A stretch of DNA of 63,227 bases, filler included, from Collodictyon triciliatum (GCA_043381765.1; 11 parts of 11 records of this genome joined end to end with filler, not necessarily neighbours in it); one strand, 5' to 3'. Positions 23,216 to 63,055 are shown, counted from the whole stretch's first letter. Numbers and translations are program-made. Notes: generated from the letters alone by a model not told the origin.

Positions 23216-24791
23216 CTAATTAAGCAATGCTGCGAATGACATCTTGTAAATCTTTGCGGGTCCTTTTTCGCTTGTTGGTGTGATCTTTGAGTCGGGCAAC
23301 GTGCATCTTGAGTCGCTCTGAGTAGGAGGGGAGGTGTCTCCAGGTATCGGCTTTGAAGCATCCTCGGTCTGCTGCGAAGAAGATGAATATGTGTATGTGG
23401 AGTTTGAATCGCTGGAGGCAGCCGACGGGTTGTGATGCGGATTTGCGGCTTGGCTCTCTTCGTATTGGAGAAACTTGTTCAGAGCGTAAATGGACTCATT
23501 AGCCATGCGGTCGTCTGGGAGGCTGGAATATGTGTCCGAGGTCGCTCTGGAATGATACCCTCGAACTGATGCGGCCAGACTAGATGTTTTGCTGGTGACG
23601 GGCCATGGAAGAGGCTCTGTTTGGTAGAGGGTGTTTTAAGTCAGTGGCATTGAGGATATGATTGTGTGTGAGAGAGTGAACGTTCTAGATGCTTTGTAAG
23701 TTTTAAAAAAAAAAATAATTCAAATATGCGCTTTATGGTGAAAGAGATATTCTGAAGTCACCTGGATATATTCGCGCGTGGCCAACTCCATCAGAACTTC
23801 CCATACTGGTTTGACCATATTTATTCCCTTCAGGTACGCAACCCGTTGCTTCTCTGGAGTTATTCTGCAGCGCATGCGGTGTTGTGCTGTGTGTTCTGTC
23901 GAGTGCATTGGAGCCAGAATTTGAGGAACCCAAATGACGTGATGCTCGAGAAGATGAGTATATTTGGTAGAGTATTTCAATGGCCTCCATGGACTCCATC
24001 TTGACGTGATGAGCAGCGAATGCACGACCATATTCACGACTCGTGGGTTGAAGTGGGTGAGTCGTAGAATCTCCGTAGTTGCGCTGCGCCTCTTTGACGC
24101 TTTTTCCGTCGGAGTCTTCTTCAGATTCAACGTCCAGAGTGATGGGATTTACTCCCAATCTACCTGTATGTGGCGCAGTCGCGGCTTTGGCCGGGCACAG
24201 TCGCTTCTTGGATCTTGTATTGCCATCATATTGATGTCTCTGGAACCATCGAGAGCGACATTGGATGTCGGTTCTGCCTGGGATTTCGCGGGACACAGCT
24301 GTCCACGCAGTCGGGCCGTATTGCGCAACGGCACTTTCCAGCAGAACGTCTTCTTCTGGGGTCCACGCGCCTTTGCGAATAGAAGGACACAGAACCCGGC
24401 CCCAGCGTTGAAAGCACTGATCCGAGTCTCTGGGCGGGCCGACCTTGCGCTCGGTCAGGGAGTCTGCAACTTTGCGCCAATTGATGCTCTTTCGGTGGTG
24501 GATGTCGATGACAGTTGGCCTCACCAAAGCAGTAGCGAGCCGGGACTGATCGGTGGCATCTCCGAGGATGACGGGTTTAATTAGGGAATCATACTTGAAT
24601 ACCTCTTTAGAGTGCACACATTCCAGCAAAGCCTTGTCCTCGTCGGGAGTCCACGATGTCACACGGCCTCGATTACGTCTCATACTGATACTTTGAGTAT
24701 CTTCTGTTATACTGATGGCTGTATCTCGCTTTAGTGTTCCCATACTCATCTGGTGTAAAGTTTGGTTAGAGAATATACGGTCATCTTTCAT
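23216..24791 (-). CDS. Myb-domain transcription factor (two repeats, R2R3-like), 2 exons (24791-23762, 23626-23216)
   Basis: WTPDEDKALL...INWRKVADSL...RDSDQCFQRW and KGAWTPEEDVLL...WTAVSREIPGRTDIQCRSRW; the intron gtgact...aaacag joins in frame to the 23216..23506 ORF. Confidence 0.9.
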
Positions 24792-27319
24792 TTTTTTACA
24801 GACTTTGTGAATTGGGTGGGATCAAAACAGTCCTTGTAATATCAATTCTTTTTCTCCTTGATGAATATCCTCATACCTCTGCTAGTTGAATCCAATTTGA
24901 AGATATCCCAGTGCTTTGGCTTAAGTTGCGCTTGGCTTATATTGACTACGTCTTTGGTAAAGAGAAAGGATGAAGTGAGATTTTGTGGTGTTAAATGTTA
25001 TAATCACAGCACTTGAGACCCTTATTTAACTTTGAATGAGTCATGAAAATCAAATTGGCAGCGAACTGCAAGAGAACCACGATTCGGCTCTATATGGTTC
25101 AGGATTCGTGTAGACAATCACACACCCGCATTTTCTGTATTTTGAACTGCTAAAATCTTATTCCATTATGGTGATGAATACAAATATAAGAGTTCATTCT
25201 TGGATTGATGGACAGAATGCGAATTGGGTACATCGCACATGCTTCAGCCCGTTGTTGCATCGCAATTATTTCAAGGTTATATGGTGTAAAAAGGAGAAAA
25301 GATTGAATGCCCTTGTTTAAAGTAACCAATTTCACCTGTATGTGGGCGGTGGGAATTGAGAAGCTTTGTTGATCAAAGGAGAAAGTCGAATTCGAGTCTA
25401 TGTCACGATGGATTGCCTTGGTTTTTTCTTTTAATTCCCTTACGAACGAAAGACAGCATCAGGGGGTGGAGAATATAATACAAATATAAGACCCTTTCAA
25501 GCTGGCCATGCAACTAGCACAAATTGATAGAAACATCTTATGGATGTGTCTTTCGAAAAGGAATCAATGCTGGGATGTTTGTATTGAGTAGGCAGCATTG
25601 TCCTGTGATACATAGGCTCAACTCTAGTGGGGGTTGAAGTCGATGCTCGTGTGACAGGGCCATTTTTTGAAAGAATGCTGTTTCGTCCTGGCTTTCGAGT
25701 GTACAATGGTGTATCTGCCTGTGACATTTTTCATTACACATGTATTTAAGTTCACCACTCCTTTTTCTTTTTTTTCTATTATTATATACGGATTGTTTTC
25801 AGCCCAGCCACCACCTAGAAACTTTGTTCTAAATATAAAGATGCACTTACGCGCGCAGTCGCTTGCGGCTGGTTTGCTTGGTTGTTTGGGTGAATGCATT
25901 CCGCGCTATAAGTCAATCCGAATAAAAGCACAAACACAAAACGAGGCAAGGATGGGGGCAGGGGAAAAAAGCAACAAGAAAATTATTAAGGATCCAATTC
26001 CAATGACATATTAGTATGTTTCTGTCACCCCACGAATCGAACATGTTTTATTACTTTTCATATCACCTATTTCATTTGTCTTTTTTTTAGTCCCTGGCCG
26101 CATTTGATGATGTTCAGGAGTTTTTTCGTTTGTTTGTTTTGTTTTTGATTTGTTTTGTTTTGTTTTGTTTTGTTTTTTGTTGTTGTTTTTGTTTTTGTTT
26201 TTGTTTTTGTTGTGGTTAATTTTTCTTATGAGAAGGGATATTTATTTTTAGAATCAAAAGGCTATGCAGGAAGCTGAAACAGAAGAAAAATAATCATGAA
26301 GTAAAACGTTTTTTAAATACATTTTTTCATAGAAACCATCAAAATATGGGTGACGAACCACACATTGTGCGGCACGCGAAAAGTTCCTCTGCCGCCAGGA
26401 AATAGCTTGGGCGACTCCATCCGGGAAGCTGAAATATCCCGATTCCGGATTAAGATTTCTAAAAGTGGATTTTGAACCGAATTCGAAGAAAATATACTCA
26501 AATAGAAAATCCGTGGTCATTTGTTGGGAATTTTGCTTGTGTGCGCGAACCGCACGAGCTGCATTGCTGTGAAGCTGCCCAGAAAGTGCATGTCTTCGAC
26601 ACCCTAATCTACAAAACATGTGAATTTATATATTTTTATCATATGATATAGATATTGATATTAAAGAGTATTAAACTGGTAAAATTAGCAATATTTAGTT
26701 ATCTATTTCTAAAACTATATAAAATCCAAATGTGTAAATTAAACGCGGAAAATAATAACATTAATTATTATTTCTGTTAATTGTCGATATAATTCATTAT
26801 CATGTATTTTATATATAATTAAAAATATGAAAATGTGCTTTATAATCTTCTGGACTTCCTGGAAATCTACCGGGTGGCATTTGCGAGACCTTGTCAAATG
26901 AATCTCGCAGTAAAGCCACGTGAATGCTGCTGTGTTGATCAAAAACCTTTGAGGCATCTGGAGTTCTCGTGCCCAAAAGCACGCAAGGATTTACTGATCA
27001 AAATGGAGCTGCTGAAACTATTTCTCTGAGTGTTTGTGTGTGCCAGTCTTCACATACGCCAACCACCCTTTCTTGGTTTACTAATACTGCAGATATGTCA
27101 GCAAGACTGTTGGCTTCTGATATGGCTCTGCGCAGTCGCTTATTGAGCAATATTCTTTTCCTTATCTCAAGCGAGCACAGAAAACACCAATCACTTGCGA
27201 TTTACGCATCTTGTACTTTCAACCGCACTATAAAACAGTCGAAGATATTTTCTAGCTTCTGCGTCTTTGAAAAAGTTACCTGGCTAGGCAACAACTCGTA
27301 ACCTCTATAAACCCTTCTC

Positions 27320-45963: not shown

Positions 45964-46076
45964 NNNNNNNNNNNNNNNNNNNNNNNNNNNNNNNNNNNNN
46001 NNNNNNNTTAATTAATTAANNNNNNNNNNNNNNNNNNNNNNNNNNNNNNNNNNNNNNNNNNNNTCTAGTCTTAGAT

Positions 46077-46241
46077 ATGCTACGACTATATACAATGGAG
46101 GGTGAAATGCTCTTTGCTACTTTTGAAGAACTGAAAGAATACTTTGACAAACTCGAGGCATTAAGAAAAAAGGGCAGGAAGAAGAAGGGGCCGCATATGT
46201 ACGGTATCATAGAAGGGCCGGTCAGAGTTAACTTTGATTAA
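46077..46241 (+). CDS. Small basic orphan protein (54 aa from first ATG; may extend beyond contig start)
   Basis: MLRLYTMEGEMLFATFEELKEYFDKLEALRKKGRKKKGPHMYGIIEGPVRVNFD*; below the ORF-track cutoff; the frame is open back to the contig start. Confidence 0.5.
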   Translation: MLRLYTMEGEMLFATFEELKEYFDKLEALRKKGRKKKGPHMYGIIEGPVRVNFD

Positions 46242-46317
46242 CCTAATATGGTATGATTGTGTTTTTATATATTAGTTATTAGATAGAAGTCCCTGAACCA
46301 TCGATTGTATACGGCAG

Positions 46318-46347
46318 ACACTGACACTGAAATTCCAGTGTCAGTGT
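46318..46347. other. Perfect inverted repeat (12-bp stem, 6-nt loop)
   Basis: ACACTGACACTG-aaattc-CAGTGTCAGTGT. Confidence 0.9.
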
Positions 46348-46396
46348 GTGAATTTCTTGCGCTAACCCCAAACCACTTTTACTTAAAAACCTCTAT

Positions 46397-46404
46397 AAAA
46401 TTGA
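46397..46404 (+). promoter_or_regulatory. Mimivirus-type early promoter motif AAAATTGA
   Basis: Exact AAAATTGA ending 46 nt before the TVpol-helicase ATG; related motifs precede the other element genes. Confidence 0.55.
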
Positions 46405-46450
46405 AACTTTAAAAAGAGGCTTAAAAACAATTAAACATAGCTTTATAAAA

Positions 46451-48856
46451 ATGACGACTTCTATTACAAAATACGAGATATTTGACCGTACGATAGCTAA
46501 TCGCCTGCTGAAGGAAGATGACTCTATTGTGACTGCGGAAGAAAAGAAAACAATTACAAAGCTACTTCGCAAGACAAAAAAAAATCTTCTGGAGGTAAAA
46601 TACAACTACGCTAAGGGATACGAGAATCTGAAAGTAGGACGAATGTATCCAAGTGGTCTGCAATCTTTAGGTTGTATGAACGGCAATATAGTTAGGAGTC
46701 CCATGTGTGAGCAATATTATTTTGATATAGACCAAGTAAATGCGCATTACAACATTGCTTATCAATATGCTGATAAACGTGGTATTGAGTGCAAGCATAT
46801 AAAACTGTATTGTGAGAATCGAGAGGAGAGCCTAGGCAAGGTGATGGAAGATTTTGGAATAGATCGTTTCGATGCCAAGATATTGTTTTTAAAGATTGCT
46901 TACGGTGGTAATCTGCCAGATGACGTGCCTGAAATGACAAAACCAATACCTAATGAAAAGCTATTGGGGGCTCTGCCTAAATTGAAAGACGAAATGGAAA
47001 TGTTGGCTGATTATGTTTGGTTGAATAATGTGAATTGGCATAACCTTAGTGTGAAAGGACGTAAGTTGAAAGATAGTGGTCCCAATAAGAAGTTTAAAAT
47101 GTTGTCTCTATTTTTACAAACAGAAGAACGTAAAATTCTTGAGGCCATGAACAAGTACTTCACGGACCAAGGTCGGTCAGTGGACGTCCTTATTCATGAC
47201 GGGTGCATGATTCGTAAAAATGAAGGAGAACTGTGCTTTCCTCGTGAGCTGATGTATACATGCGAAGAGTTTGTAAAAGAGTTTACTGGTTATTCGGTAA
47301 AGTTGGAAGAAAAACCGATTGTGTTTGATTGGGAATTTAAAGAACAAGAAACAACGTCAAGTACTGGTTTTTGGAAGAATCATTTTATGATGAATGGCAG
47401 ACTTTTGAAGGAGAGTCCGTTGTTAGAAAGGCCTGTTGTAATATCACACCCTCAAACCTATGTAATGAAGTACAATGAAGAATTTCCTTGTCAAGCAAAA
47501 GAAATCTTTGATATGATATGCAGTTTTCCAGAACGTGAGTATGATACGTATGGGTTTCATCCGTATGGCAAAGAGTGTCCTTCGAAAGTGTACAATACTT
47601 TTAATGGTTTTGAGTGGACCAAATTATATGATCGACCCGGTAAATTGTCCAACAAAGATTATTACTCGTTGATAGAAGAAATTACCGAAAGACCTGTTAG
47701 CCTTGAGGACACACGTAACTGGAAGAATTCAAAAACAAGGTGGCAGATTGAAGACATTATGTGTCATGACGACAATCCAGAAAAAAAAAATTATAACATC
47801 AAGTACTTTATTAATATCCTGGGTAATAGATTGTTTGCCCCAACAAAGCCATGTGAGAAAGTTCTGTGTTTGAGGAATAACATGGGAGGTTCGGGAAAGA
47901 CGGGTCTCATCGAAAGAAGTTTTGCCGAAAAGTTGCTAGGAGAGGAATATTTTACTTCACAGTCATCTGCAAAGCACGTATTTGGTGACTTTAATGCAAG
48001 CATAGCATCGAAACTGTTTATTTTATGTGAAGAGGCAGAGACAAAAGACACAAAAGAATTTACTGCTAACATCAAAGCTGCAGTAACCCGTAAGCGCAAC
48101 CCTATAAGATTAATGAAGACAGACATATTCAATGAGCAAAATTATTGTGTGTACATTGCGAATACCAATAAGCAAACAGCTTTTGAGTTTGACCCAAAGA
48201 ATCACCGTCGATTCCCACAGATTGATTGTAAAGAGTATCAATTAAGTCAAGAGGAAATTAAAGTTCTAAGAGACGAAACAGATAACCCGTATTACAACAG
48301 ATTGTTTTTTGAGTACATACTGCGCATGTATGATCCCAACTTTAACTTTGAGAAACATCCAGAGACTGAATCTGTCAAGAAACTTGTAGAGCGCTATAAG
48401 GATCCATTCATACAGTTTTTTGAGATAACACTGTACCATTGGGACGACTTTTATAATGAGAAATATCGAGACCCACGCGAATTCAAAAAGTACGACCTGG
48501 ATAAAAAAGCTGAGTGGGAAATTAAAGCAGAAGAGTATTGGCAATTGTTTATTAGTATCAGCAACGATATGGTTTCAAAGAAATACGCTGAAAGTATTCC
48601 GTTTGCTTCTTTCAGACAAAACGAACATTTGTTAGATTTGATGAAAACGTATCCTTTATACTTTAAAAAAACTGTTGTGACTTACTTGAAAAAGGGTGAA
48701 ACAAAAAAACAATTAGGCACGTACTATACAATTAATCTTGGAAAGTTTCGTGAGTTTTACAATCTAGAGTTTATTTCAAAAGAAAGCATGCGAACACTCG
48801 ACGACTATGCAGAGAGTGCTGCCAAGAAACAAAAAGTTCTACATGACCAAGAATAA
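46451..48856 (+). CDS. TVpol (family A-like primase-polymerase) fused to superfamily 3 (D5-like) helicase, 801 aa
   Basis: GRMYP..SL..VR; motif A YYFDIDQVNAH; motif B RFDAKILFLKIAYGG; LFLQTEERKIL; motif C VLIHDGCMI; helicase Walker A GGSGKT, Walker B FILCEE, motif C IANTNK, arginine finger RRF. Confidence 0.88.
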   Translation: MTTSITKYEIFDRTIANRLLKEDDSIVTAEEKKTITKLLRKTKKNLLEVKYNYAKGYENLKVGRMYPSGLQSLGCMNGNIVRSPMCEQYYFDIDQVNAHYNIAYQYADKRGIECKHIKLYCENREESLGKVMEDFGIDRFDAKILFLKIAYGGNLPDDVPEMTKPIPNEKLLGALPKLKDEMEMLADYVWLNNVNWHNLSVKGRKLKDSGPNKKFKMLSLFLQTEERKILEAMNKYFTDQGRSVDVLIHDGCMIRKNEGELCFPRELMYTCEEFVKEFTGYSVKLEEKPIVFDWEFKEQETTSSTGFWKNHFMMNGRLLKESPLLERPVVISHPQTYVMKYNEEFPCQAKEIFDMICSFPEREYDTYGFHPYGKECPSKVYNTFNGFEWTKLYDRPGKLSNKDYYSLIEEITERPVSLEDTRNWKNSKTRWQIEDIMCHDDNPEKKNYNIKYFINILGNRLFAPTKPCEKVLCLRNNMGGSGKTGLIERSFAEKLLGEEYFTSQSSAKHVFGDFNASIASKLFILCEEAETKDTKEFTANIKAAVTRKRNPIRLMKTDIFNEQNYCVYIANTNKQTAFEFDPKNHRRFPQIDCKEYQLSQEEIKVLRDETDNPYYNRLFFEYILRMYDPNFNFEKHPETESVKKLVERYKDPFIQFFEITLYHWDDFYNEKYRDPREFKKYDLDKKAEWEIKAEEYWQLFISISNDMVSKKYAESIPFASFRQNEHLLDLMKTYPLYFKKTVVTYLKKGETKKQLGTYYTINLGKFREFYNLEFISKESMRTLDDYAESAAKKQKVLHDQE

Positions 48857-48875
48857 ATGACTTAGTCCACACAAT

Positions 48876-49310
48876 TTATTGATAATCGTCAGGTGTAGGT
48901 GTTGATTTGAGAGAGTAAGAAATTTTAGGGGGAGAGTCAGGAGGGGTCAGGGCTTTACGGACGCGTTCCGCAGCAGCAATCAGAGAATTAGGGCTGCCAG
49001 ATTCGAGTGAAGAGTTTAGAGAACTTGAAGAGGTTCCTGAGTAATCAACGAGGGGCATCATGGCAGGCGCTTCGACGATTTGAAATTCATGCGAGCCATT
49101 GGTTTGCTTTCTTCGTGATTTTCTATTCACGTATGACTTGTGGTTGCTTCTGCGGAGTCTCCTGGCGATTTCTACCATTTGTCGCACGGCGTCCAGGTTT
49201 TCTCCCCATTCGATAAAACACAGGTAGTTGAGTCGTGCTAGTTCTTCTCCAGTCAGCGTGCGGGTGGTCATGTCGCTCATCTGTTCTTCTCTGTTGACGG
49301 TGCGGGCCAT
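48876..49310 (-). CDS. Orphan protein (~144 aa) with S/P-rich C-terminus
   Basis: ATG at 49310 (MARTVNREEQ...) inside ORF 48876..49427; GC-richer coding-like composition; divergent from the integrase. Confidence 0.6.
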   Translation of the reverse strand: MARTVNREEQMSDMTTRTLTGEELARLNYLCFIEWGENLDAVRQMVEIARRLRRSNHKSYVNRKSRRKQTNGSHEFQIVEAPAMMPLVDYSGTSSSSLNSSLESGSPNSLIAAAERVRKALTPPDSPPKISYSLKSTPTPDDYQ

Positions 49311-49400
49311 TGTTTGCTTAAAGTACTTATCAATTATAACGTAAGGTAAAATTGTCTTTAAGCTGCGTTTTTTACACAAAAAAAAATTATTCTTTATGTA

Positions 49401-50855
49401 ATGAGCAACGCAAGCACTAGTGACCAATACAACGAGAAGCTACAGAAAAGGTACAACGAGCCAGGGCAAGTAAACAGCGTCGAAGCGATGTATCGCCATT
49501 TCAACAAAGAAATACCTCGCAGTTACATTGAGGCTTGGATGAAAAAGAATCCCTATCAACAAATTAGCAAGCCTGCTTACAAAAGCAAGGACGTGACGTC
49601 CTTCAATGTTACCGACCCAAGTTACGCCCAAATAGATTTGATCTACACCAAGGGACTTTATCCAGAAGACCATACTGGAGTGAAATACAATTATCTAATG
49701 ACATGTGTTGTGCTTTTGACACGCAAGGTGTTTTTGTATCCGCTGATTGATAAGACTCTGGCCGAAAGCAAAAAGGCTGTGCTCGAATTCAAAAAAGATT
49801 ACCCTGCGTTAAAAGTTATTCAAAGCGACAATGGCACAGAGTTCAAGTACGAGAAAGCATGGCTACAAGAACACGGCCTCAAGCAAGTCAAGTCGAGTCC
49901 GTACAACCCTACGAGTCAGGCCTATGTGGAGCGCATGAATAGTGTGGTAAAGAATAGTCTCTACAAGTACCATCAAAAGACAGGAGCTACTATTACAAAA
50001 GAAGTGCTAGAAAAAACTGCAGACAGCATTAACGATCAGCCGAATCGTGACACCGGGGTGATTCCTAACAATGCGGCCACGAAAGAAAATCTGACAAAGC
50101 TTATAGAAGCTAACCAGAAAAAATTAGACCGGTCTGCTACATCCGCTAAGGACGACTTGCTAGAAATTGGACAGCTAGTCAGGGTGAACCTGAAGAAAAC
50201 AAATTTGACAACGCAAGAGCGTAATAAATTCAAGACCAATAAAAACTGGATCCCAAAATTCACTGTTGCGTTGTTTGAGATAGTGAGCAGAGAAGTTTCA
50301 AAGGATGGCTTTAAAGCCCCGACATATAAACTGAAGGCACTGAAAGAAAGTGATAAGGAAATATTGAAGGGAAAGAAATTTCTGCGCAGAGACCTACAGC
50401 CTGTAGACAAAGACACAGACAAAGAATTTACACCAAAGGTTGATTTGCTAAAGCGTGACGCTGCTAGTGTAAAAAAGAAGAGGGGGCCGTATCTGGCTTC
50501 GAACGTACAGAGCGCTCGAGCTGACTTTGATAAGAACGTGTGGACACCAGACACAAAGAATTTCACAAACCGCACTGGCAAGAATGCTCCAAGCAAGCCA
50601 GGGCGTCAAGCTGAGCTTGATAGGCTAGAACCGAAAGTCAAGGAAGCATATGAAGCGTTTGTTACTAAACACGGAGACAATCCTAAAATGACAACGCTAC
50701 AAACTAAAAACTTTAATAAGCTAAAAAGGATTATAGGCTCTTTATTGCGAGTTCAGCCTTCGGAAGAAGTAGCTGTAAGCAAACCAATCACCGTCGAGCA
50801 AATCAAGCCGATCAAGCGTCGGAAGATGACCGTGGTTTCTTCGCAGGCCTCTTAG
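49401..50855 (+). CDS. Retroviral-like (rve) DDE integrase, Polinton/Maverick type, 484 aa
   Basis: YAQIDL (D1), IQSDNGTEF (D2), SQAYVERMN (E; 33 residues between D2 and E); Polinton-style N-terminus (YNEP..SVEAMY...IEAWM...YQQ) and C-terminal IGQLVRV...FEIV...PTYKL...FLRRDLQPV. Confidence 0.92.
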   Translation: MSNASTSDQYNEKLQKRYNEPGQVNSVEAMYRHFNKEIPRSYIEAWMKKNPYQQISKPAYKSKDVTSFNVTDPSYAQIDLIYTKGLYPEDHTGVKYNYLMTCVVLLTRKVFLYPLIDKTLAESKKAVLEFKKDYPALKVIQSDNGTEFKYEKAWLQEHGLKQVKSSPYNPTSQAYVERMNSVVKNSLYKYHQKTGATITKEVLEKTADSINDQPNRDTGVIPNNAATKENLTKLIEANQKKLDRSATSAKDDLLEIGQLVRVNLKKTNLTTQERNKFKTNKNWIPKFTVALFEIVSREVSKDGFKAPTYKLKALKESDKEILKGKKFLRRDLQPVDKDTDKEFTPKVDLLKRDAASVKKKRGPYLASNVQSARADFDKNVWTPDTKNFTNRTGKNAPSKPGRQAELDRLEPKVKEAYEAFVTKHGDNPKMTTLQTKNFNKLKRIIGSLLRVQPSEEVAVSKPITVEQIKPIKRRKMTVVSSQAS

Positions 50856-51393
50856 ATTTCTTTATCTCAGTACTGATCTCCTTAGCCAGGGCTACAAGCT
50901 CGTCTGGCTTTTTCTCTCTTTTTTGCGCTTCATCTTTGTCTTCTTCTTGAAGCATTTTTTCAACCTTGGCTACAACTTTGCGTTTCTCTGCACGGGCTGG
51001 GGCATTCTCTATATGTTTTTTCAATCCTTTTTCTCGCTTAGCCTGGTTAGCTTCATCGGACTGTCGATAAATGTCTCCAATGTCCTTTGTGTTGTTTGTC
51101 CAACTTTTGCCATAATTAGTCATACCCAATACTTTGCCTTCTTGATCTTTCCAGAGAGCGTCTCCCACTTCATTCTGAATCAGAGACACAAACCCTTGGT
51201 TGACCTTGGCTGGATATTCCTTGTCTTTGTACGTGCGAGCTTTTACTTCGTACATAATGTAGTCACCTTTCTTGAGGTCACTGTATTGAACCTTTGTGTA
51301 ATCTTTGTCGTCGGTGGGCAAGGCAGTCTTGGTCTTGGGTTTCTTGGCGTCGTCTTCGCTGGGGGTTTTGCGGACATACTTGCGGGGCGGCAT
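50812..51393 (-). CDS. Lysine-rich orphan protein, 193 aa, possible SH3/Tudor-like beta-barrel
   Basis: Clean ATG-start ORF MPPRKYVRK...; central DLKKGDYIMY...GFVS...LGMTNYGKSW..DIYRQ; 3' end overlaps the integrase by 44 bp. Confidence 0.7.
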   Translation of the reverse strand: MPPRKYVRKTPSEDDAKKPKTKTALPTDDKDYTKVQYSDLKKGDYIMYEVKARTYKDKEYPAKVNQGFVSLIQNEVGDALWKDQEGKVLGMTNYGKSWTNNTKDIGDIYRQSDEANQAKREKGLKKHIENAPARAEKRKVVAKVEKMLQEEDKDEAQKREKKPDELVALAKEISTEIKKSKRPAKKPRSSSDA

Positions 51394-51576
51394 ACTGAAT
51401 GAATGATAATGATTTTATAAAACAAACGCGTTTCAATTTACAAAAGTTGCTCGTGCCTATATACTCAGAAGATGGATATATATGGAAGGTAAGCGTTAAT
51501 TGAGGGTGTAATGTTTTGTGGTCAAGGGGCGAGACAGTATATAAACCCCTGAAATTTTGAGGTTCACAAGGTTCGC

Positions 51577-51619
51577 TGTGGAATTTGTAACTCCATAATA
51601 GATAGTTACAAATTCCACA
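51577..51619. other. Perfect inverted repeat (16-bp stem, 11-nt loop)
   Basis: TGTGGAATTTGTAACT-ccataatagat-AGTTACAAATTCCACA. Confidence 0.92.
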
Positions 51620-51828
51620 TAAATCTTATAATTTTTGAAGTGGGGCTGCCATTCACTGCGCTGGATAAAATCTTTTCCTGGGAAAATTCAGATGTTTGGA
51701 TAAATCCTTTTTCTAATTNNNNNNNNNNNNNNNNNNNNNNNNNNNNNNNNNNNNNNNNNNNNTTAATTAATTAANNNNNNNNNNNNNNNNNNNNNNNNNN
51801 NNNNNNNNNNNNNNNNNNGTGTGTGTTT

Positions 51829-51981: not shown

Positions 51982-54900
51982 TCACAAGCCTTTTGGCGTG
52001 TAGTAGTTGCCTTTCACAGAGTGCGCCGCACCACTGCCCAGAGTTGCTTTCAGTTCGTATGAGCCGGGTCCTGGTCCGGCCGGAGCTGTCAAATGGTGCA
52101 TTGTCAGGCCGCAAGATGATACATGGTAGCTCATTATTTAGATTATAGCGCACGTTGCTTTTGATAACTGGAAGTTTACAGTTGAGCAAACCTTCTTTCT
52201 TGGTTCTTCTTTCATACAGCGAGTAAGCTGGCGCACTTCCAAGTAATGAAGGAATCATATACTTTCCAGGGCCGGGGACATCCAGTTCTATGTTTTTTGT
52301 CATAAAAAAAAGTGGCTTATATAATTGCGATTTCAAAGCACTAATAAAATGGGTACCACGTGTGGGAAATCAGAAAGAAAAAGAAGAGAGGTATATTCGT
52401 ATACTCTTTTGAGGCGGAATGGCTTCAGATATAGTGAACGACGGCGCTGTGCCAGTTGAGTTCGGATGAGAATAAGCTCCAGGCCCGGGAGTTGAGGACG
52501 CTTTACAACATGCATTTATAAATATTTATTGTGAGCTAACTTTCGGTTTTAAACATATCACTTGGTCAGTATCGTTACCATTATTATGTCAAAAAAAAAA
52601 CCCGAATCAAGCAAACCCGAGCGACTTGGTGCACGTCCTGGCATGGAATACGCAGGTGCTTCACCAAATCTAGAGCGCAGTTGATAAGCTCCAGGTCCAG
52701 GAACATCATCGCCTACATTTCACCATAAATAAGTCTTATTGGGAAGAGAAAAAAGAGCAAGAAAAATATGATGAATAAGGTATAAACGAATAAAATATAA
52801 TTGTGAAATTATATGATTAATTTACATGGACAATTCGAAAATTGAGACCTTTTGGAGGAGGGAACTTTCCTCTTACAGAATATGTGATTACAGGGTCGGT
52901 AAACAATTGGGGGTTGTATGCTCCAGGCCCGGGTGTATACGAGTCTGATTGTTTTTTTGAGAGAAAGAATGAACTTTTAAGTGGTCTACAAGGGTTTAGA
53001 AAAAGTGTTAGTTTATATTACATTCTGTATTATTTTTCTCTAGTCTTTAAATCAACCTTCCTTTGTTGGAGAACGGCCTCGCATAGTCCAGGAGGGCCCC
53101 TCTCCAACAAAACGCGGGGCCTCATACTTTCCGGGTCCGGGCGTGTTCGTTTCTTTTGTGTTTATTGATGACAAGTAGTACCGTGAATATGTAATTATAA
53201 AATATTAATAATTATATCAGCCATCCTCCCATGTTCATGTAGTTCACTGGAAATCATAACAAGCTTACCAGTTGCGCTATTTGATTTTTGCCTCATTGTG
53301 TACGATTCTGATTGCCCTATGTGGCTGTGGCTCTCATACTTGCCTGGCCCCGGATATGATTCGCCTATATTGTGATATATTTCAATATTGATGATAAGCT
53401 ATCTCTAGAGTCATATATAAAGAGAAAAATTCACGTTTTGGGGAGCCCGGTCGGCCGTTCATCGAGTATGCTGGAGCTTGGCCAAGTTTTGCACCAATAT
53501 GGTAAGCACCAGGGCCGGGTGTTTGAAGCGCTAGCAGAAATGAGAGCGAGTAAGATAAACTAATTGTTAATACTGAGTGATTTTTCATATAATTCAAAAA
53601 GAGGAATGTTATAGATGATACATGCCATGAAAAATAGGCTGTGAAGAAAAATTGAGGAAAACAACGAAATGTAGTGCATACACAATAAAAAAAAAAAATA
53701 CATTTTTCATATGCGGAGCGTCCACTCATGGTGTGCGCTTGTGCAATTCCAAAAAGTGGGCTAATTGTATACGATGCAGGTCCTGGAGAGACTTTAATTT
53801 CGGCATCTTTTTTACGCCCATTCATAGAATATGAGGGTGCCGTCCCAAGCAAGGAGTGATGTTGATAAGCACCTGGCCCAGGCGTTTGAAATCCTAACCA
53901 TACAATTTTTTTTTAAAATTATTTCATTTCCAAAACGGCATTGTTTGATTGAGGAGAGGGAATATTTTTTTATTGTTGCACTTTTTCTGATCTAATTTGG
54001 TTACCTGATTGAGTATCTCTCTTATTTCCAAAAGTGTAAGAGTAGCTTTCTCCAATGTAGCTGATTGATTTGTATGCATCTGGAGATGGGGTCAAGTATC
54101 CTGAAAGAAAACAAAATCATACAGTGAAATTTCAGAAGAAAAATAGTTGAATGAATAAGAAATTTTCGTTCCATTAAGGACACCTCGTGTTGGTCTTGGG
54201 CGACCAGGCATTGTGAAAGAAGCCGCCTCTCCTAAACGTGACCGTATTTCATACTTGCCCGGTCCGGGAACATCATCGACTAAAAATAAAGATAAAAAAC
54301 ATACCATAACATTTGAGAAAGGCGAAATGGTTCATATCATAAAATGAATAAACCACTACATGAACTACTGAATAAAGCTAAAAGAGATGTCGATGTATAA
54401 TAAATCAACAAATAATTCGGCCTTGAACAGAATAAAGGAGAAAATGAACAAATGATTAGAATAAAAGAAAAAAAAGGGAACTTATTAGGATTTAATATTC
54501 CCAATATTTCTTAATCTATTTGCCATGTATGCAGTTCAAAATATCCAGCGTATCATATGTTAATTATTTGCCCACTTTTTAGAGTAGGTCTCTTTGCACA
54601 CATCGAATAGGCCGATGACGTCCCGATTTGAGACGGGCTTTCATACGAACCAGGTCCTGGGGTTACATGACCAGCTGCATTCCAAGGCAAATAAGAAAAA
54701 CTGTGGTTGCATCGAAACAGAAGTACAGAAATACAGAAATACAGAAATACAGAAATACAGAAATACAGAAATACAGAAATACAGAAATACAGAAATACAG
54801 AAATACAGAAATACAGAAATACAGAGAGAGAGAGTTTAAATGGTTTACGACCATTGAGGTCAATTAATTGACAGGTTTACCTTTCTTGGTAGTCCGTCGT

Positions 54901-61843: not shown

Positions 61844-63055
61844 TTATTGGAAAAGGGTATCCAGTGCGCTTGTATCCACGGGGTTAGGCAAAGTCACCTG
61901 GAAGAGCGGCTCCTCAGTCATCGCGTAGGCGGCAGAGTAGAGTGCATTTTCATTGGTCCCATCCCATGCACGCCTCGAAATGCCGTTATTGACATCAAAG
62001 AAAAGCATGTTTCGGGCTTTTCGTGATGCTTCTTCTGTCCCATCCAAGACAAGTCCAAACCCTCCATTGATGGCCTCTCCCCAGCCTGTCCCGCCTCCGT
62101 TGTGGATGCTGACCCAGGTTGCGCCTAACCCCCCCCAAAAAAAAGAAAAGAACAGGAATTGGGTGATGATGCGCCGCATTTTCGTGCTGGTTAAAGGAAA
62201 AAGAACTGGGCCAAGAAAAAAAAGAAGCTGTAAACCTCGGAATGAGTCTCCAATGACATTCTGGATTGCCATATCGGCACAAAACATGGAGCCGTCGCGA
62301 ATGTTAGATGTCTCTCTGTATGGACTGTCGGTTCCGCTCACGTCGTGGTGGTCTCTGCTAAGCACAATAGGGCCCTTGTGTCGTATAGGTGATGTTAATA
62401 CAGCTGTGTCGCAAAGTCTATGATGCAAAAGAACCTTTCGATATTTAATTGCTTATCACCTTGAGCTGCCCAGCGCGGATGGCTTGATTGAATGCCTCCG
62501 CAATTGTAGCGCGTCCCTGAAGAACGTGGTGAGTGAATATGAATAGGGACGATATGGGTGCACAACATATACATATATGATAATCTGGTCTCCAATATGC
62601 TAGGTAATTGTGTCAAACTCGAAATTGCTGCTTTGGTGTACATCATTCACCCAAATAAAGAAATCAAAATAAGAGGATACAAGAAGAAAAACCTTGGCGT
62701 CGCTGTACAGGATTCGAGCCTGAGAACCGACAACCAACCTTTTATTTCATAAAATATAAAAAAAAAATATATGAATTTACTTTATATATATGACTATTGT
62801 GATAATAGGGGTTTATATATAAAACATATAATACCAGTACGTTGATAATTTTTTCCTTTATTCGTGCCAGTATGTTGATAAGAATTTATTTATTATTGTT
62901 TTCTTTTCTAGGATGACATATTTTAATACTTGTGTTCATCAACTTTGCTTATCCAAAGAAAGTTGTCTTCAAACTGTTGCTTCACTCGGACGTCTGGTGC
63001 ATTTTGTCCAAGCTTCTGAACAACTTCCATGGCAATTCGGTCAGTTTCGCTACGA
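61844..63055 (-). CDS. UROC1: Urocanate hydratase (eukaryotic UROC1 type), 3' part
   Basis: VGSQARILYSD, VLSRDHHDVSGTDSPYRETSNIRDGS..CADMAIQN.IGD.FRG|ATWVSIHNGGGTGWGEAINGGFG..LDG, FDVNNGISRRAW. Confidence 0.93.

Follow-up and report, generated by a model that had tools for sequence, protein, structure and literature searches.

Gene content of the contig

The window is the whole 63,227-nucleotide stretch of DNA that was analyzed, in which 11 contigs of one assembly are joined. One contig, delimited by spacers, carries the genes described here. It contained five ORFs in 5655 bp, as the first-pass annotation had described. The contig and its genes are as follows.

46064-51718: contig of 5655 bp, flanked on both sides by N44-TTAATTAATTAA-N44 spacers
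46077-46241, + strand: ORF0, 54 aa
46451-48856, + strand: ORF1, 801 aa, TVpol fused to an SF3 helicase
46451..47326, + strand: ORF1 residues 1-292, TVpol, comprising the palm and fingers of a minimal family-A polymerase
47360..48856, + strand: ORF1 residues 304-801, D5/NrS-1-like SF3 helicase followed by a C-terminal helical domain
48876-49310, - strand: ORF2, 144 aa counted from the ATG
49401-50855, + strand: ORF3, rve DDE integrase, 484 aa
50812-51393, - strand: ORF4, 193 aa, lysine-rich

The contig was also said to lack microsatellites. This holds: all 54 TRF rows fall outside 46064-51718, and every one of the other 10 contigs carries one or more. Because it is the only contig of the 11 without a tandem repeat, it stands out as foreign among the host contigs. 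It is unlike all 10 others in composition and repeat content, and the other contigs of the assembly contain microsatellites and exon-like ORFs. Pfam searches bore out the reported absence of PolB, capsid, ATPase, and protease families from the contig. It contains no ORF for a protein-primed PolB, which may lie off the contig. Within this incomplete 5655-bp contig, the two ends are not linked by an inverted repeat. It carries no TSD and no host flank.

Replication protein

The product of ORF1 is a virophage/PLV-type TVpol-SF3 helicase. This identity, proposed from the sequence at first pass, was established by Pfam, alignments of the AlphaFold model, BFVD matches, and invariant residues. The model had a mean pLDDT of 90.4. 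Residues 1-292 aligned with Klenow with a Z of 15.0 (rmsd 3.9, 272 residues aligned), and with Pol theta (Z 14.9), T7 DNA polymerase (Z 12.3), and T7 RNAP (Z 10.0). This part contains the motif-like stretches DIDQVNAH (92-99), RFDAKILFLKIAYGG (139-153), and LIHDG (247-251). The catalytic Asp/Lys/Asp residues D94, K143, and D250 were invariant in 61 sequences.

The helicase part contains a Walker A motif (GGSGKTG, 479-485), CEEAE (525-529), NTN (571-573), and RRF (586-588). Residues G480, G482, K483, and R587 are conserved. Pfam matched residues 432-606 to DUF5906 (E 5.7e-12) and a VapE-like family (E 7e-9). Residues 304-762 of the model matched the NrS-1 C-terminal region (Z 22.4) and vaccinia D5 (Z 15.7), and the helicase part had a Foldseek match in the PDB with an E of 3.6e-12. 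At full length, ORF1 matched the Qinghai Lake virophage helicase/primase/polymerase (E 6.7e-32) and the Zamilon "DNA replication protein" (E 7.8e-29) in BFVD, over 871-903 columns at a sequence identity of just 17-18%.

Integrase and the remaining ORFs

ORF3 encodes an intact DDE (rve) integrase. The invariant D/D/E triad, the fold, and sequence matches all support the family first assigned to it. The protein contains a helical N-terminal domain, a catalytic core, a small beta-barrel (252-336), and a long basic tail. D79, D143, and E177 were invariant in alignments of 8 and 12 sequences. The RNase H-like catalytic core matched the MMTV integrase (Z 18.8) and RSV IN (Z 18.5). Pfam rve matched with an E of 5.8e-6 and 26.9 bits, under the cutoff of 32.6; a homologue on a related contig (L044, below) scored 36.5 bits against the same cutoff. 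The PFV integrase matched by sequence (E 2.7e-5), and the mavirus integrase matched in BFVD over 332 columns (E 5.1e-11). No HHCC zinc-binding domain was found in the protein. Residues 1-60 are helical and without Cys, and they weakly match winged-helix DNA-binding domains (Z 7.1). Fold searches gave no separation between a "Polinton-type" and a "retroviral-type" integrase.

ORF4 is convergent with the integrase gene, and the two overlap by 44 nt. Its homologue adjoins the integrase in L044 (32% identity, E 9e-25) and also in two metagenome contigs, L041 and L042. Databases yielded six homologues of ORF4, and the contig of one of them is 15.9 kb long. From this gene order, ORF4 is a conserved partner of the integrase. 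Neither ORF2 nor ORF4 matched a Pfam family at an E of ≤1. ORF0 was not assigned to a family. The reading frame stays open up to the left edge of the contig, and ORF0 may therefore be what remains of the C-terminal end of a longer gene. The stretch 46064-46239 is kept at ≥80% identity in lake-metagenome contigs that reach 1.6-2.4 kb further left.

Noncoding features

The features between and beyond the genes are as follows.

46315..46350: palindrome with a perfect stem, located after ORF0 and ahead of the ORF1 promoter, candidate hairpin at a transcript end
46397..46404, + strand: AAAATTGA, exact mimivirid early-promoter core, 46 nt 5' of the ORF1 ATG
49330..49355: divergent promoter region with two AAAATTGA-like motifs, between ORF2 and the integrase
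51433..51440, - strand: TAAATTGA motif, AAAATTGA-like, 39 nt 5' of ORF4
51468..51490, + strand: core of a 41-bp unit, single copy, candidate terminal repeat or origin region
51577..51619: inverted repeat, perfect over 16 nt with an 11-nt loop, in the right-hand noncoding region

The motif AAAATTGA is described as a mimivirid early-promoter motif that also precedes the recombinase and TVpol genes of PgVV-14T (10.1101/2022.07.28.501842). In the divergent region, ATAATTGA lies on the - strand 19 nt ahead of ORF2, and AAAATTGT lies on the + strand 45 nt ahead of the integrase; both are AAAATTGA-like. The ORF4 and ORF1 promoters have the 10-mer AAATTGAAAC in common. The contig contained 13 AAAATTGA sites at ≤1 mismatch on both strands. 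All four genes with upstream DNA on the contig have such a site 19-46 nt upstream on the coding strand. Composition-matched shuffles gave 0.06-0.11 sites per 70-nt window and a joint value of ~7e-5, for a motif picked after sighting and with overlapping windows for ORF2 and the integrase. L044 was not enriched in AAAATTGA, with a site within 100 nt in 5 of 9 ORFs and ~3 expected.

The palindrome folds as RNA at -24.6 kcal/mol (z -4.75), and 0 of 200 shuffles were equally stable. The inverted repeat gave a z of -6.8 on the + strand and -7.3 on the - strand. The 41-bp unit forms a tandem array in relatives, and their contigs end there.

Freshwater relatives

Two JGI metagenome contigs, L041 and L042, align with 48892-51439 at 92-93% DNA identity and 96-98% protein identity. 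ORF2 was 96% identical in amino acids and 91% identical in nucleotides to its L041 counterpart. The dN/dS against L041 was 0.04 for ORF2, 0.06 for the integrase, and 0.05 for ORF4. Judged by these substitution ratios, ORF2 is a real gene under purifying selection. The ratios show strong purifying selection on all three genes and, at the level of sequence, an active lineage.

DNA of ~92% identity was present in lake-water metagenomes of several studies. One of these relatives was a contig of 8403 bp from one freshwater run. It is colinear with the window contig and contained ORF0, a 2733-nt replacement of the ORF1 region, and ORF2-integrase-ORF4, with the repeat unit at its end. By its coordinates and 30-nt loose ends only, it overshoots the left end of the window contig by 2365 bp. 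It has one repeat end, and a second end was not seen in it. Another contig of 8688 bp begins with the 41-bp unit in the same orientation and then diverges. This sharing is what terminal inverted repeats would give. The two contigs were alike in depth (22.3 and 22.6), which may be coincidence. Over the replicase gene, similarity drops below 80% in relatives whose integrase block is 92% identical.

These data bear on the possibility that the contig is an endogenous provirus in a chromosome of the sequenced eukaryote, perhaps a mavirus-like defense against giant viruses. In favor of it, the assembly is eukaryotic, with microsatellites and exon-like ORFs on its other contigs, the integrase of the contig is intact, and PLV and virophage insertions are described as common in protist genomes (PMC10120064). 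Against this, the host flank, TIR, and TSD are all absent from the contig, and it differs in composition and repeats from the 10 others. An environmental virus, or a protist present in the sample, would likewise account for DNA 92% identical in lake water. We consider an endogenous copy unlikely. The contig probably lies outside the host genome proper. The copy in the assembly may be integrated in the sequenced eukaryote, be located in an associated protist, or be free viral DNA.

Virion genes in distant relatives

ORF1 matched 2934 library proteins at an E of ≤1e-3. Its homologues at 51-53% identity were on contigs of 11.8-16.6 kb. The longest contig for an integrase homologue (P0166, 63%) and an ORF4 homologue (P0174, 49%) was 15,859 bp for both. 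Contigs of only 2-8 kb were found for the close homologues P0001-P0003, P0007, P0009, and P0164-P0168. All 33 IMG/VR loci of distant TVpol-S3H relatives were on contigs of 5.7-31 kb, and 21 of them were on contigs of 19-31 kb. Relatives longer than the window contig thus exist.

The window-type integrase was in 0 of the 33 IMG/VR TVpol loci, so TVpol together with this integrase is not typical of the family. One IMG/VR contig, L036, encodes a TVpol and a related rve integrase together.

L044 was the sole relative contig annotated in full. It contained 10,409 bp and encodes the same pair as the window contig, an integrase at 51% identity and an ORF4 homologue. It also encodes an AEP-primase/DUF5906 helicase, the helicase part of which is 23% identical to ORF1. 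A Pox_A32 ATPase was found with an E of 6.2e-8 and 32.8 bits (cutoff 22.8). A 256-aa penton-like protein matched Nucleocytoviricota DUF5901 clusters in language-model features at 0.98, and a 480-aa protein is fiber-like. A relative with the same integrase and ORF4 pair therefore carries virion-packaging genes. An A32-like ATPase resembling that of L044 was in 3 of the 33 IMG/VR loci. A double jelly-roll MCP was identified neither in any relative nor on the window contig; that of L044, if present, is off its contig. The morphogenetic genes of L044 need not apply to the window lineage, because the integrases are 51% identical and the primase domain is different.

It is extremely unlikely that the contig derives from a giant virus (Nucleocytoviricota), whether as part of its genome or as an insertion within it. 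The mimivirid-type promoter motifs and the helicase fold common to D5 would fit such an origin. The best full-length structural matches among named entries, however, were virophage replication proteins and not D5. The related contigs span 5.7-31 kb, and the L044 genes are PLV-type, not giant-virus-type.

Comparison with known systems

A transpoviron is a ~7-kb linear episome with inverted termini and without integrase or capsid genes. The visible piece of the window element resembles transpovirons in its small size, helicase-based replicase, and lack of a capsid gene. It differs in having an integrase, in having relatives of >8.4 kb, and in that its integrase module is tied to virion genes in L044. 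Polintons/Mavericks have an rve integrase and the life style of an integrating dsDNA virus, which the window element may share. They differ from the window contig, which is without a protein-primed PolB, protease, or TIR and has a replicase of another class.

The replicase of Sputnik/Zamilon and the lake virophages matches ORF1 at full length in structure. In the accounts consulted, their TVpol-S3H is accompanied by a tyrosine recombinase or by no recombinase (PMC4642659, PMC12220804), whereas the window contig encodes an rve integrase. Mavirus and mavirus-like virophages have, as here, a stand-alone rve integrase by the replication gene near the genome end. An "end module" layout is described in the literature (PMC11296320). 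Mavirus is described with a protein-primed PolB and a late giant-virus promoter, in contrast to the TVpol-S3H and early-type motifs of the window contig (10.1101/2022.07.28.501842).

PgVV-14T (Phaeocystis globosa virus virophage) is a PLV that lives like a virophage. It encodes a TVpol-SF3 helicase like that of the window element and has the AAAATTGA early motif before genes, as here (10.1101/2022.07.28.501842). The same source gives it a tail-fiber-like protein, an A32 ATPase, and a penton, all with counterparts in L044. It is described with an OLV11-like tyrosine recombinase instead of an rve DDE integrase, and with all ORFs in one orientation, unlike the alternating ORFs of the window contig. 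It encodes virion genes (ATPase, penton), whereas the window element is known from a capsid-free piece.

Interpretation

The contig is most probably an incomplete replication and integration module of a small freshwater dsDNA virus of the PLV/virophage kind. The first-pass annotation had left two readings, a fragment of a PLV or virophage and a capsid-less element. The former gained from the longer relatives, the homologue contigs of 10-17 kb, and the ATPase and penton-like gene of L044. The latter found no positive support.

A capsid-less element of ~6-9 kb would replicate with its own TVpol-helicase, insert by rve, and be carried inside other viruses' particles, as an integrating transpoviron-like element or self-synthesizing transposon. 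Its absence of structural genes over 5.6 kb and the many short contigs (2-8 kb) of close homologues would agree with this, although metagenome assemblies normally yield short contigs and homologues are also on contigs of 11.8-16.6 kb. The 8.4-kb relative begins at a repeat array, but it has no second end, and the window contig has no inverted termini. A 2026 preprint deals with PolA/AEP replicase genes that may be self-mobilizing, and with transpoviron-like insertions (10.64898/2026.10.13.758929). Against these stands L044, in which integrase and ORF4 occur on one contig with a penton-like gene and an A32 ATPase. We regard the capsid-less element as improbable. A self-replicating, self-integrating form of <10 kb, made up of the TVpol-helicase, the rve integrase, and a few small genes, with 41-bp arrays at its bounds, mimivirid early promoters, and passage in giant-virus or PLV particles, is very improbable. 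Such an "integrating transpoviron," if real, would belong to a type of element so far undescribed.

The pairing of TVpol with rve had been called uncommon, and this agrees with a published count in which only 2 of the 298 PLVs of the TVpol-dominated cryptophyte cluster encode rve (PMC12220804), though precedents exist. A 2026 preprint describes how replication modules are exchanged next to RVE (10.64898/2026.06.19.733378). The pairing is uncommon, yet it is inside the module swapping published for PLVs.

As a PLV/virophage-type virus, the element would use its TVpol-helicase to prime and unwind its DNA in replication. The integrase would put a linear copy into the chromosome of a protist host, in the manner of mavirus and Polintons. 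The capsid module (MCP, penton, A32 ATPase) would lie beyond the left end of the contig, and the right end would be near a repeat-bearing genome terminus, in an "end module" layout. By analogy with PgVV-14T, a co-infecting mimivirid giant virus might transcribe ORF1, ORF2, the integrase, and ORF4 with its early machinery; the chances of this are about even.

The contig adds a freshwater lineage with a virophage-type TVpol-helicase beside a mavirus/Polinton-type integrase, a combination reported to be rare. It also shows module turnover. Close relatives differ in their replicase, and L044 keeps the integrase and ORF4 with an AEP primase replacing TVpol. If the early-promoter reading is true, this would be a PgVV-like virophage able to integrate mavirus-style, and it would bear on provirophage defense in lake protists.

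Contig layout and gene content

The window is built of contigs of about 5.7 kb, and the spacers between them are N44-TTAATTAATTAA-N44. The element reported in the first-pass annotation at 46064-51718 matches one contig exactly, with 5,655 bp between spacers. The contig carries the five ORFs described, on alternating strands. It is also the one microsatellite-free contig, as had been stated: 0 of 54 Tandem Repeats Finder rows fall inside it, and all ten other contigs contain one or more. That observation was right on all checkable points. No inverted or direct repeats linking the two ends of the contig were found.

Features of the contig (window coordinates)
46077-46241, + strand, ORF0, 54 aa; the reading frame runs open into the left contig end
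46315-46350, noncoding, hairpin, z -4.75
46451-48856, + strand, ORF1, 801 aa
48876-49310, - strand, ORF2, 144 aa
49401-50855, + strand, integrase, 484 aa
50812-51393, - strand, ORF4, 193 aa
51468-51490, one core copy of a 41-bp repeat unit
51577-51619, noncoding, hairpin, z -6.8/-7.3

Microsatellites and exon-sized ORFs give the remaining ten contigs the look of ordinary eukaryotic DNA. Three exon-like ORFs on these neighboring contigs, all on the - strand, were read by eye as Myb/SANT-repeat-like (23733-24821), PGPGAY-repeat and sperm-tail PG-rich-like (53382-53912), and urocanase-like (61844-62452). They are consistent with a flagellated eukaryote host.

ORF1 replicase

Pfam recognized only the helicase part of ORF1 (residues 432-606; DUF5906, E = 5.7e-12; VapE-like, E = 7e-9). 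An AlphaFold model was made from 61 sequences (mean pLDDT, 90.4) and compared structurally with 48,161 PDB representatives. Residues 1-292 of the model resemble family-A polymerases. The best match was Klenow (Z 15.0, rmsd 3.9, 272 aligned), followed by Pol theta (Z 14.9), Pol nu (Z 13.1), and T7 DNA polymerase (Z 12.3); T7 RNA polymerase scored Z 10.0. For residues 304-762 the matches were the C-terminal region of NrS-1 (Z 22.4), the primase-helicase of SaPI5 (Z 18.3), and D5 of vaccinia (Z 15.7), and Foldseek concurs. The stretches DIDQVNAH, RFDAKILFLKIAYGG, and LIHDG are what we take to be polymerase-A motifs A, B, and C. D94, K143, and D250 show no variation across 61/61 aligned sequences. 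In BFVD, ORF1 matched replication proteins of Qinghai Lake virophage (E = 6.7e-32) and Zamilon (E = 7.8e-29) over its full length. The predicted structure identifies ORF1 as a TVpol-SF3 helicase (TVpol-S3H), TVpol being a minimal family-A polymerase.

Word-indexed homologues of ORF1 numbered 16 among 7,999 scored candidates, nine of them at 49 to 82% identity. A library of 1.84 billion representatives gave 2,934 matches (107 with E ≤ 1e-30). Homologues occur on contigs as long as 16.6 kb.

Integrase

The Pfam match of the integrase to rve (E = 5.8e-6, 26.9 bits) lies under the curated cutoff of 32.6 bits. A phmmer search found PFV and lentiviral integrases, with a best E value of 2.7e-5. D79, D143, and E177 are unvarying in the family. 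In the predicted structure (pLDDT, 72.6), the catalytic core matches the integrases of MMTV (Z 18.8), RSV (Z 18.5), PFV (Z 18.1), and Ty3 (Z 17.4). There is no HHCC in the N-terminal domain, which is helical, and a small barrel spanning residues 252-336 is weakly similar to Tudor/chromo-like folds (Z 6.0 to 6.3). BFVD returned MELD virus (E = 3.1e-12), mavirus (E = 5.1e-11), and retroviral integrases at comparable values (all E 1e-12 to 5e-11). Because these score alike, the fold neither confirms nor denies the earlier label of "Polinton-type." The protein is an rve integrase that stands by itself, not fused to a reverse transcriptase. It has seven homologues at 51 to 94% identity.

Close relatives and selection

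The integrase alignment, run against JGI metagenomes, gave 427 pattern matches and, from these, 4 loci. L041 and L042 are from lake metagenomes and are 92 to 93% identical to window 48892-51439 in DNA and 96 to 98% in protein. The dN/dS values against L041 (Nei-Gojobori) were 0.04 (ORF2), 0.06 (integrase), and 0.05 (ORF4). These are accordingly genuine genes that selection maintains in the lineage, and not remnants of an insertion in decay. ORF4 has six homologues at 47 to 97% identity. One database homologue of the integrase (P0166) and one of ORF4 (P0174) each list a 15,859-bp contig. A search of sequencing runs gave five hits with a small word share in each (0.05 to 0.07), none of them listed as RNA.

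Integrase protein identity reaches 94 to 98%, whereas the best ORF1 homologue reaches only 82%. In the lake-metagenome relatives the flanks (ORF0; ORF2-integrase-ORF4) are 80 to 93% identical, and in place of the 2,655 nt of window 46240-48894 (the ORF1 region) they have 2,733 nt that are <80% alike. Either an exchange of the replicase gene or its much faster evolution would account for this.

Extent of the element

The contig is not the whole element, which is incomplete here. Logan contigs from four lake or freshwater metagenome runs were compared with it. An 8,403-bp contig contains, in order, the 41-bp repeat unit, an insert of about 520 nt, ORF4-integrase-ORF2 (window 51439-48895), 2,733 nt in place of window 46240-48894 (<80% alike), and ORF0 (46239-46064). 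It extends 2,365 bp past the left end of our contig. A 1,707-bp contig from another run gives about 1.6 kb of leftward extension. An 8,688-bp contig starts with the same repeat unit in the same orientation and diverges after it. Its depth is close to that of the 8,403-bp contig (22.3 versus 22.6), an equality that may be due to chance. We infer that the two starts follow the pattern expected of terminal inverted repeats; if so, the genome would be at least ~17 kb.

L041 and L042 each have an additional small ORF right of the ORF4 promoter, then a tandem array of the 41-bp unit that ends the contig. The repeat core has 0 exact matches in IMG/VR. The extra ORFs (L041 2598-2849; L042 1909-2370) differ despite the near identity of these relatives, and the window has no ORF there, which points to a hot spot of accessory-gene insertion. 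The last 99 bp of our contig (51620-51718) recur in other lake-metagenome contigs, such as one of 1,725 bp at depth 55. These contigs differ left of 51620, immediately beyond the palindrome. The recurrence may reflect a joint made by recombination or a terminal segment that these contigs share.

Virion genes and replicases in distant relatives

L044 is a more distant JGI contig of 10,409 bp. Its integrase is 51% identical to that of the window, and a convergent ORF4 homologue adjoins it (32% identity, E = 9e-25). Its primase-helicase, of 837 aa, shares 23% identity with ORF1 in the DUF5906 helicase. The N terminus has a weak PriCT-2 match (E = 0.0065, under the Pfam cutoff), and its motifs, read by eye, weakly suggest an archaeo-eukaryotic primase. 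This AEP-like primase-SF3 helicase (5106-7619, - strand) replaces TVpol beside the integrase and ORF4, in the opposite orientation. It is a case of domain-level replicase swapping on a common DUF5906 helicase.

L044 also encodes a 240-aa Pox_A32 packaging ATPase (E = 6.2e-8, over the Pfam cutoff). A 256-aa protein resembles Nucleocytoviricota DUF5901 clusters in language-model features (0.98), and its predicted-structure neighbors are all viral. A literature search found nothing on DUF5901, so the protein is labeled penton-like by inference. A short TTAGGG-like tandem repeat (3634-3694; ~5 copies, 73 to 77% matches) sits within the 680-bp gap between the penton-like and ATPase genes. A 480-aa ORF was considered as the MCP and rejected, as ESM Atlas placed it with phage tail-fiber-like clusters (0.92 to 0.94).

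When IMG/VR was scanned with one protein at a time (ORF1, the integrase, or ORF0), no relatives emerged. Distant TVpol-S3H relatives (24 to 37% identity) were found at 33 IMG/VR loci, on contigs of 5.7 to 31 kb (21/33 at 19 to 31 kb). Three of the 33 have an L044-like ATPase, and none has a window-type integrase by tblastn or HMM. Distant integrase relatives were found at seven further IMG/VR loci. One of these, the 27-kb contig L036, encodes a 991-aa TVpol-D5_N (399-3374, - strand) and a 462-aa rve integrase (9512-10900, + strand; Pfam E = 2.2e-16). The pairing of TVpol with rve is therefore rare, not unique.

That the contig derives from a capsid-less integrating mini-element is quite improbable. 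Against it stand the ATPase and penton-like genes of L044 and the leftward extensions. No MCP was identified in L044. Pfam found no capsid or ATPase family among 10 ORFs of L036, recognizing D5_N and rve alone. Eight other large ORFs of L036 have no Pfam family, so any capsid genes there would go unrecognized.

Expression signals

The mimivirid early-promoter core AAAATTGA occurs with at most one mismatch at 13 sites on both strands of the contig. Four sites lie on the coding strand 19 to 46 nt 5' of the starts of ORF1, ORF2, the integrase, and ORF4, which are 4/4 of the genes with upstream DNA on the contig. Shuffled 70-nt upstream windows contained a site in 6 to 11% of trials (joint, ~7e-5, for a motif picked post hoc and with overlapping ORF2 and integrase windows). 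Enrichment was not seen in L044. The PgVV-14T preprint (10.1101/2022.07.28.501842) identifies it as the core of the mimivirus early promoter, conserved in mesomimiviruses; in that virophage-like PLV (Polinton-like virus), which relies on PgV for transcription, it precedes the genes for the recombinase and TVpol. Giant-virus-type promoters are likely on the contig.

Mimivirid transcripts are described as terminating at hairpins (PMC4402537). The two hairpins of the contig might, speculatively, be transcript ends of this type. There is none at the convergent ends of ORF1 and ORF2 (z +0.62).

Comparison with known systems

In Yutin et al. (2015; PMC4642659), PgVV and two PLVs had TVpol-S3H, and a single PLV had an RVE integrase. 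In a study of cryptophytes, one PLV cluster relies mainly on TVpol-S3H as its replicase; a tyrosine recombinase occurs in 232/298 of its PLVs and rve in only 2/298 (PMC12220804). "End modules," as described in PMC11296320, consist of a replicase and integrase adjoining the terminal repeat and undergo turnover. According to two 2026 preprints (10.64898/2026.10.13.758929 and 10.64898/2026.06.19.733378), replicases are often swapped in every PLV group, and the cases include SF3-helicase fusions within the RVE-bearing Maverick-Polinton group 2. The contig agrees with this picture as an end module, here with TVpol-S3H and rve. It probably represents part of the genome of a PLV/virophage-type virus from a freshwater source, with an uncommon replicase-integrase pairing that has precedent and with likely giant-virus-type promoters.
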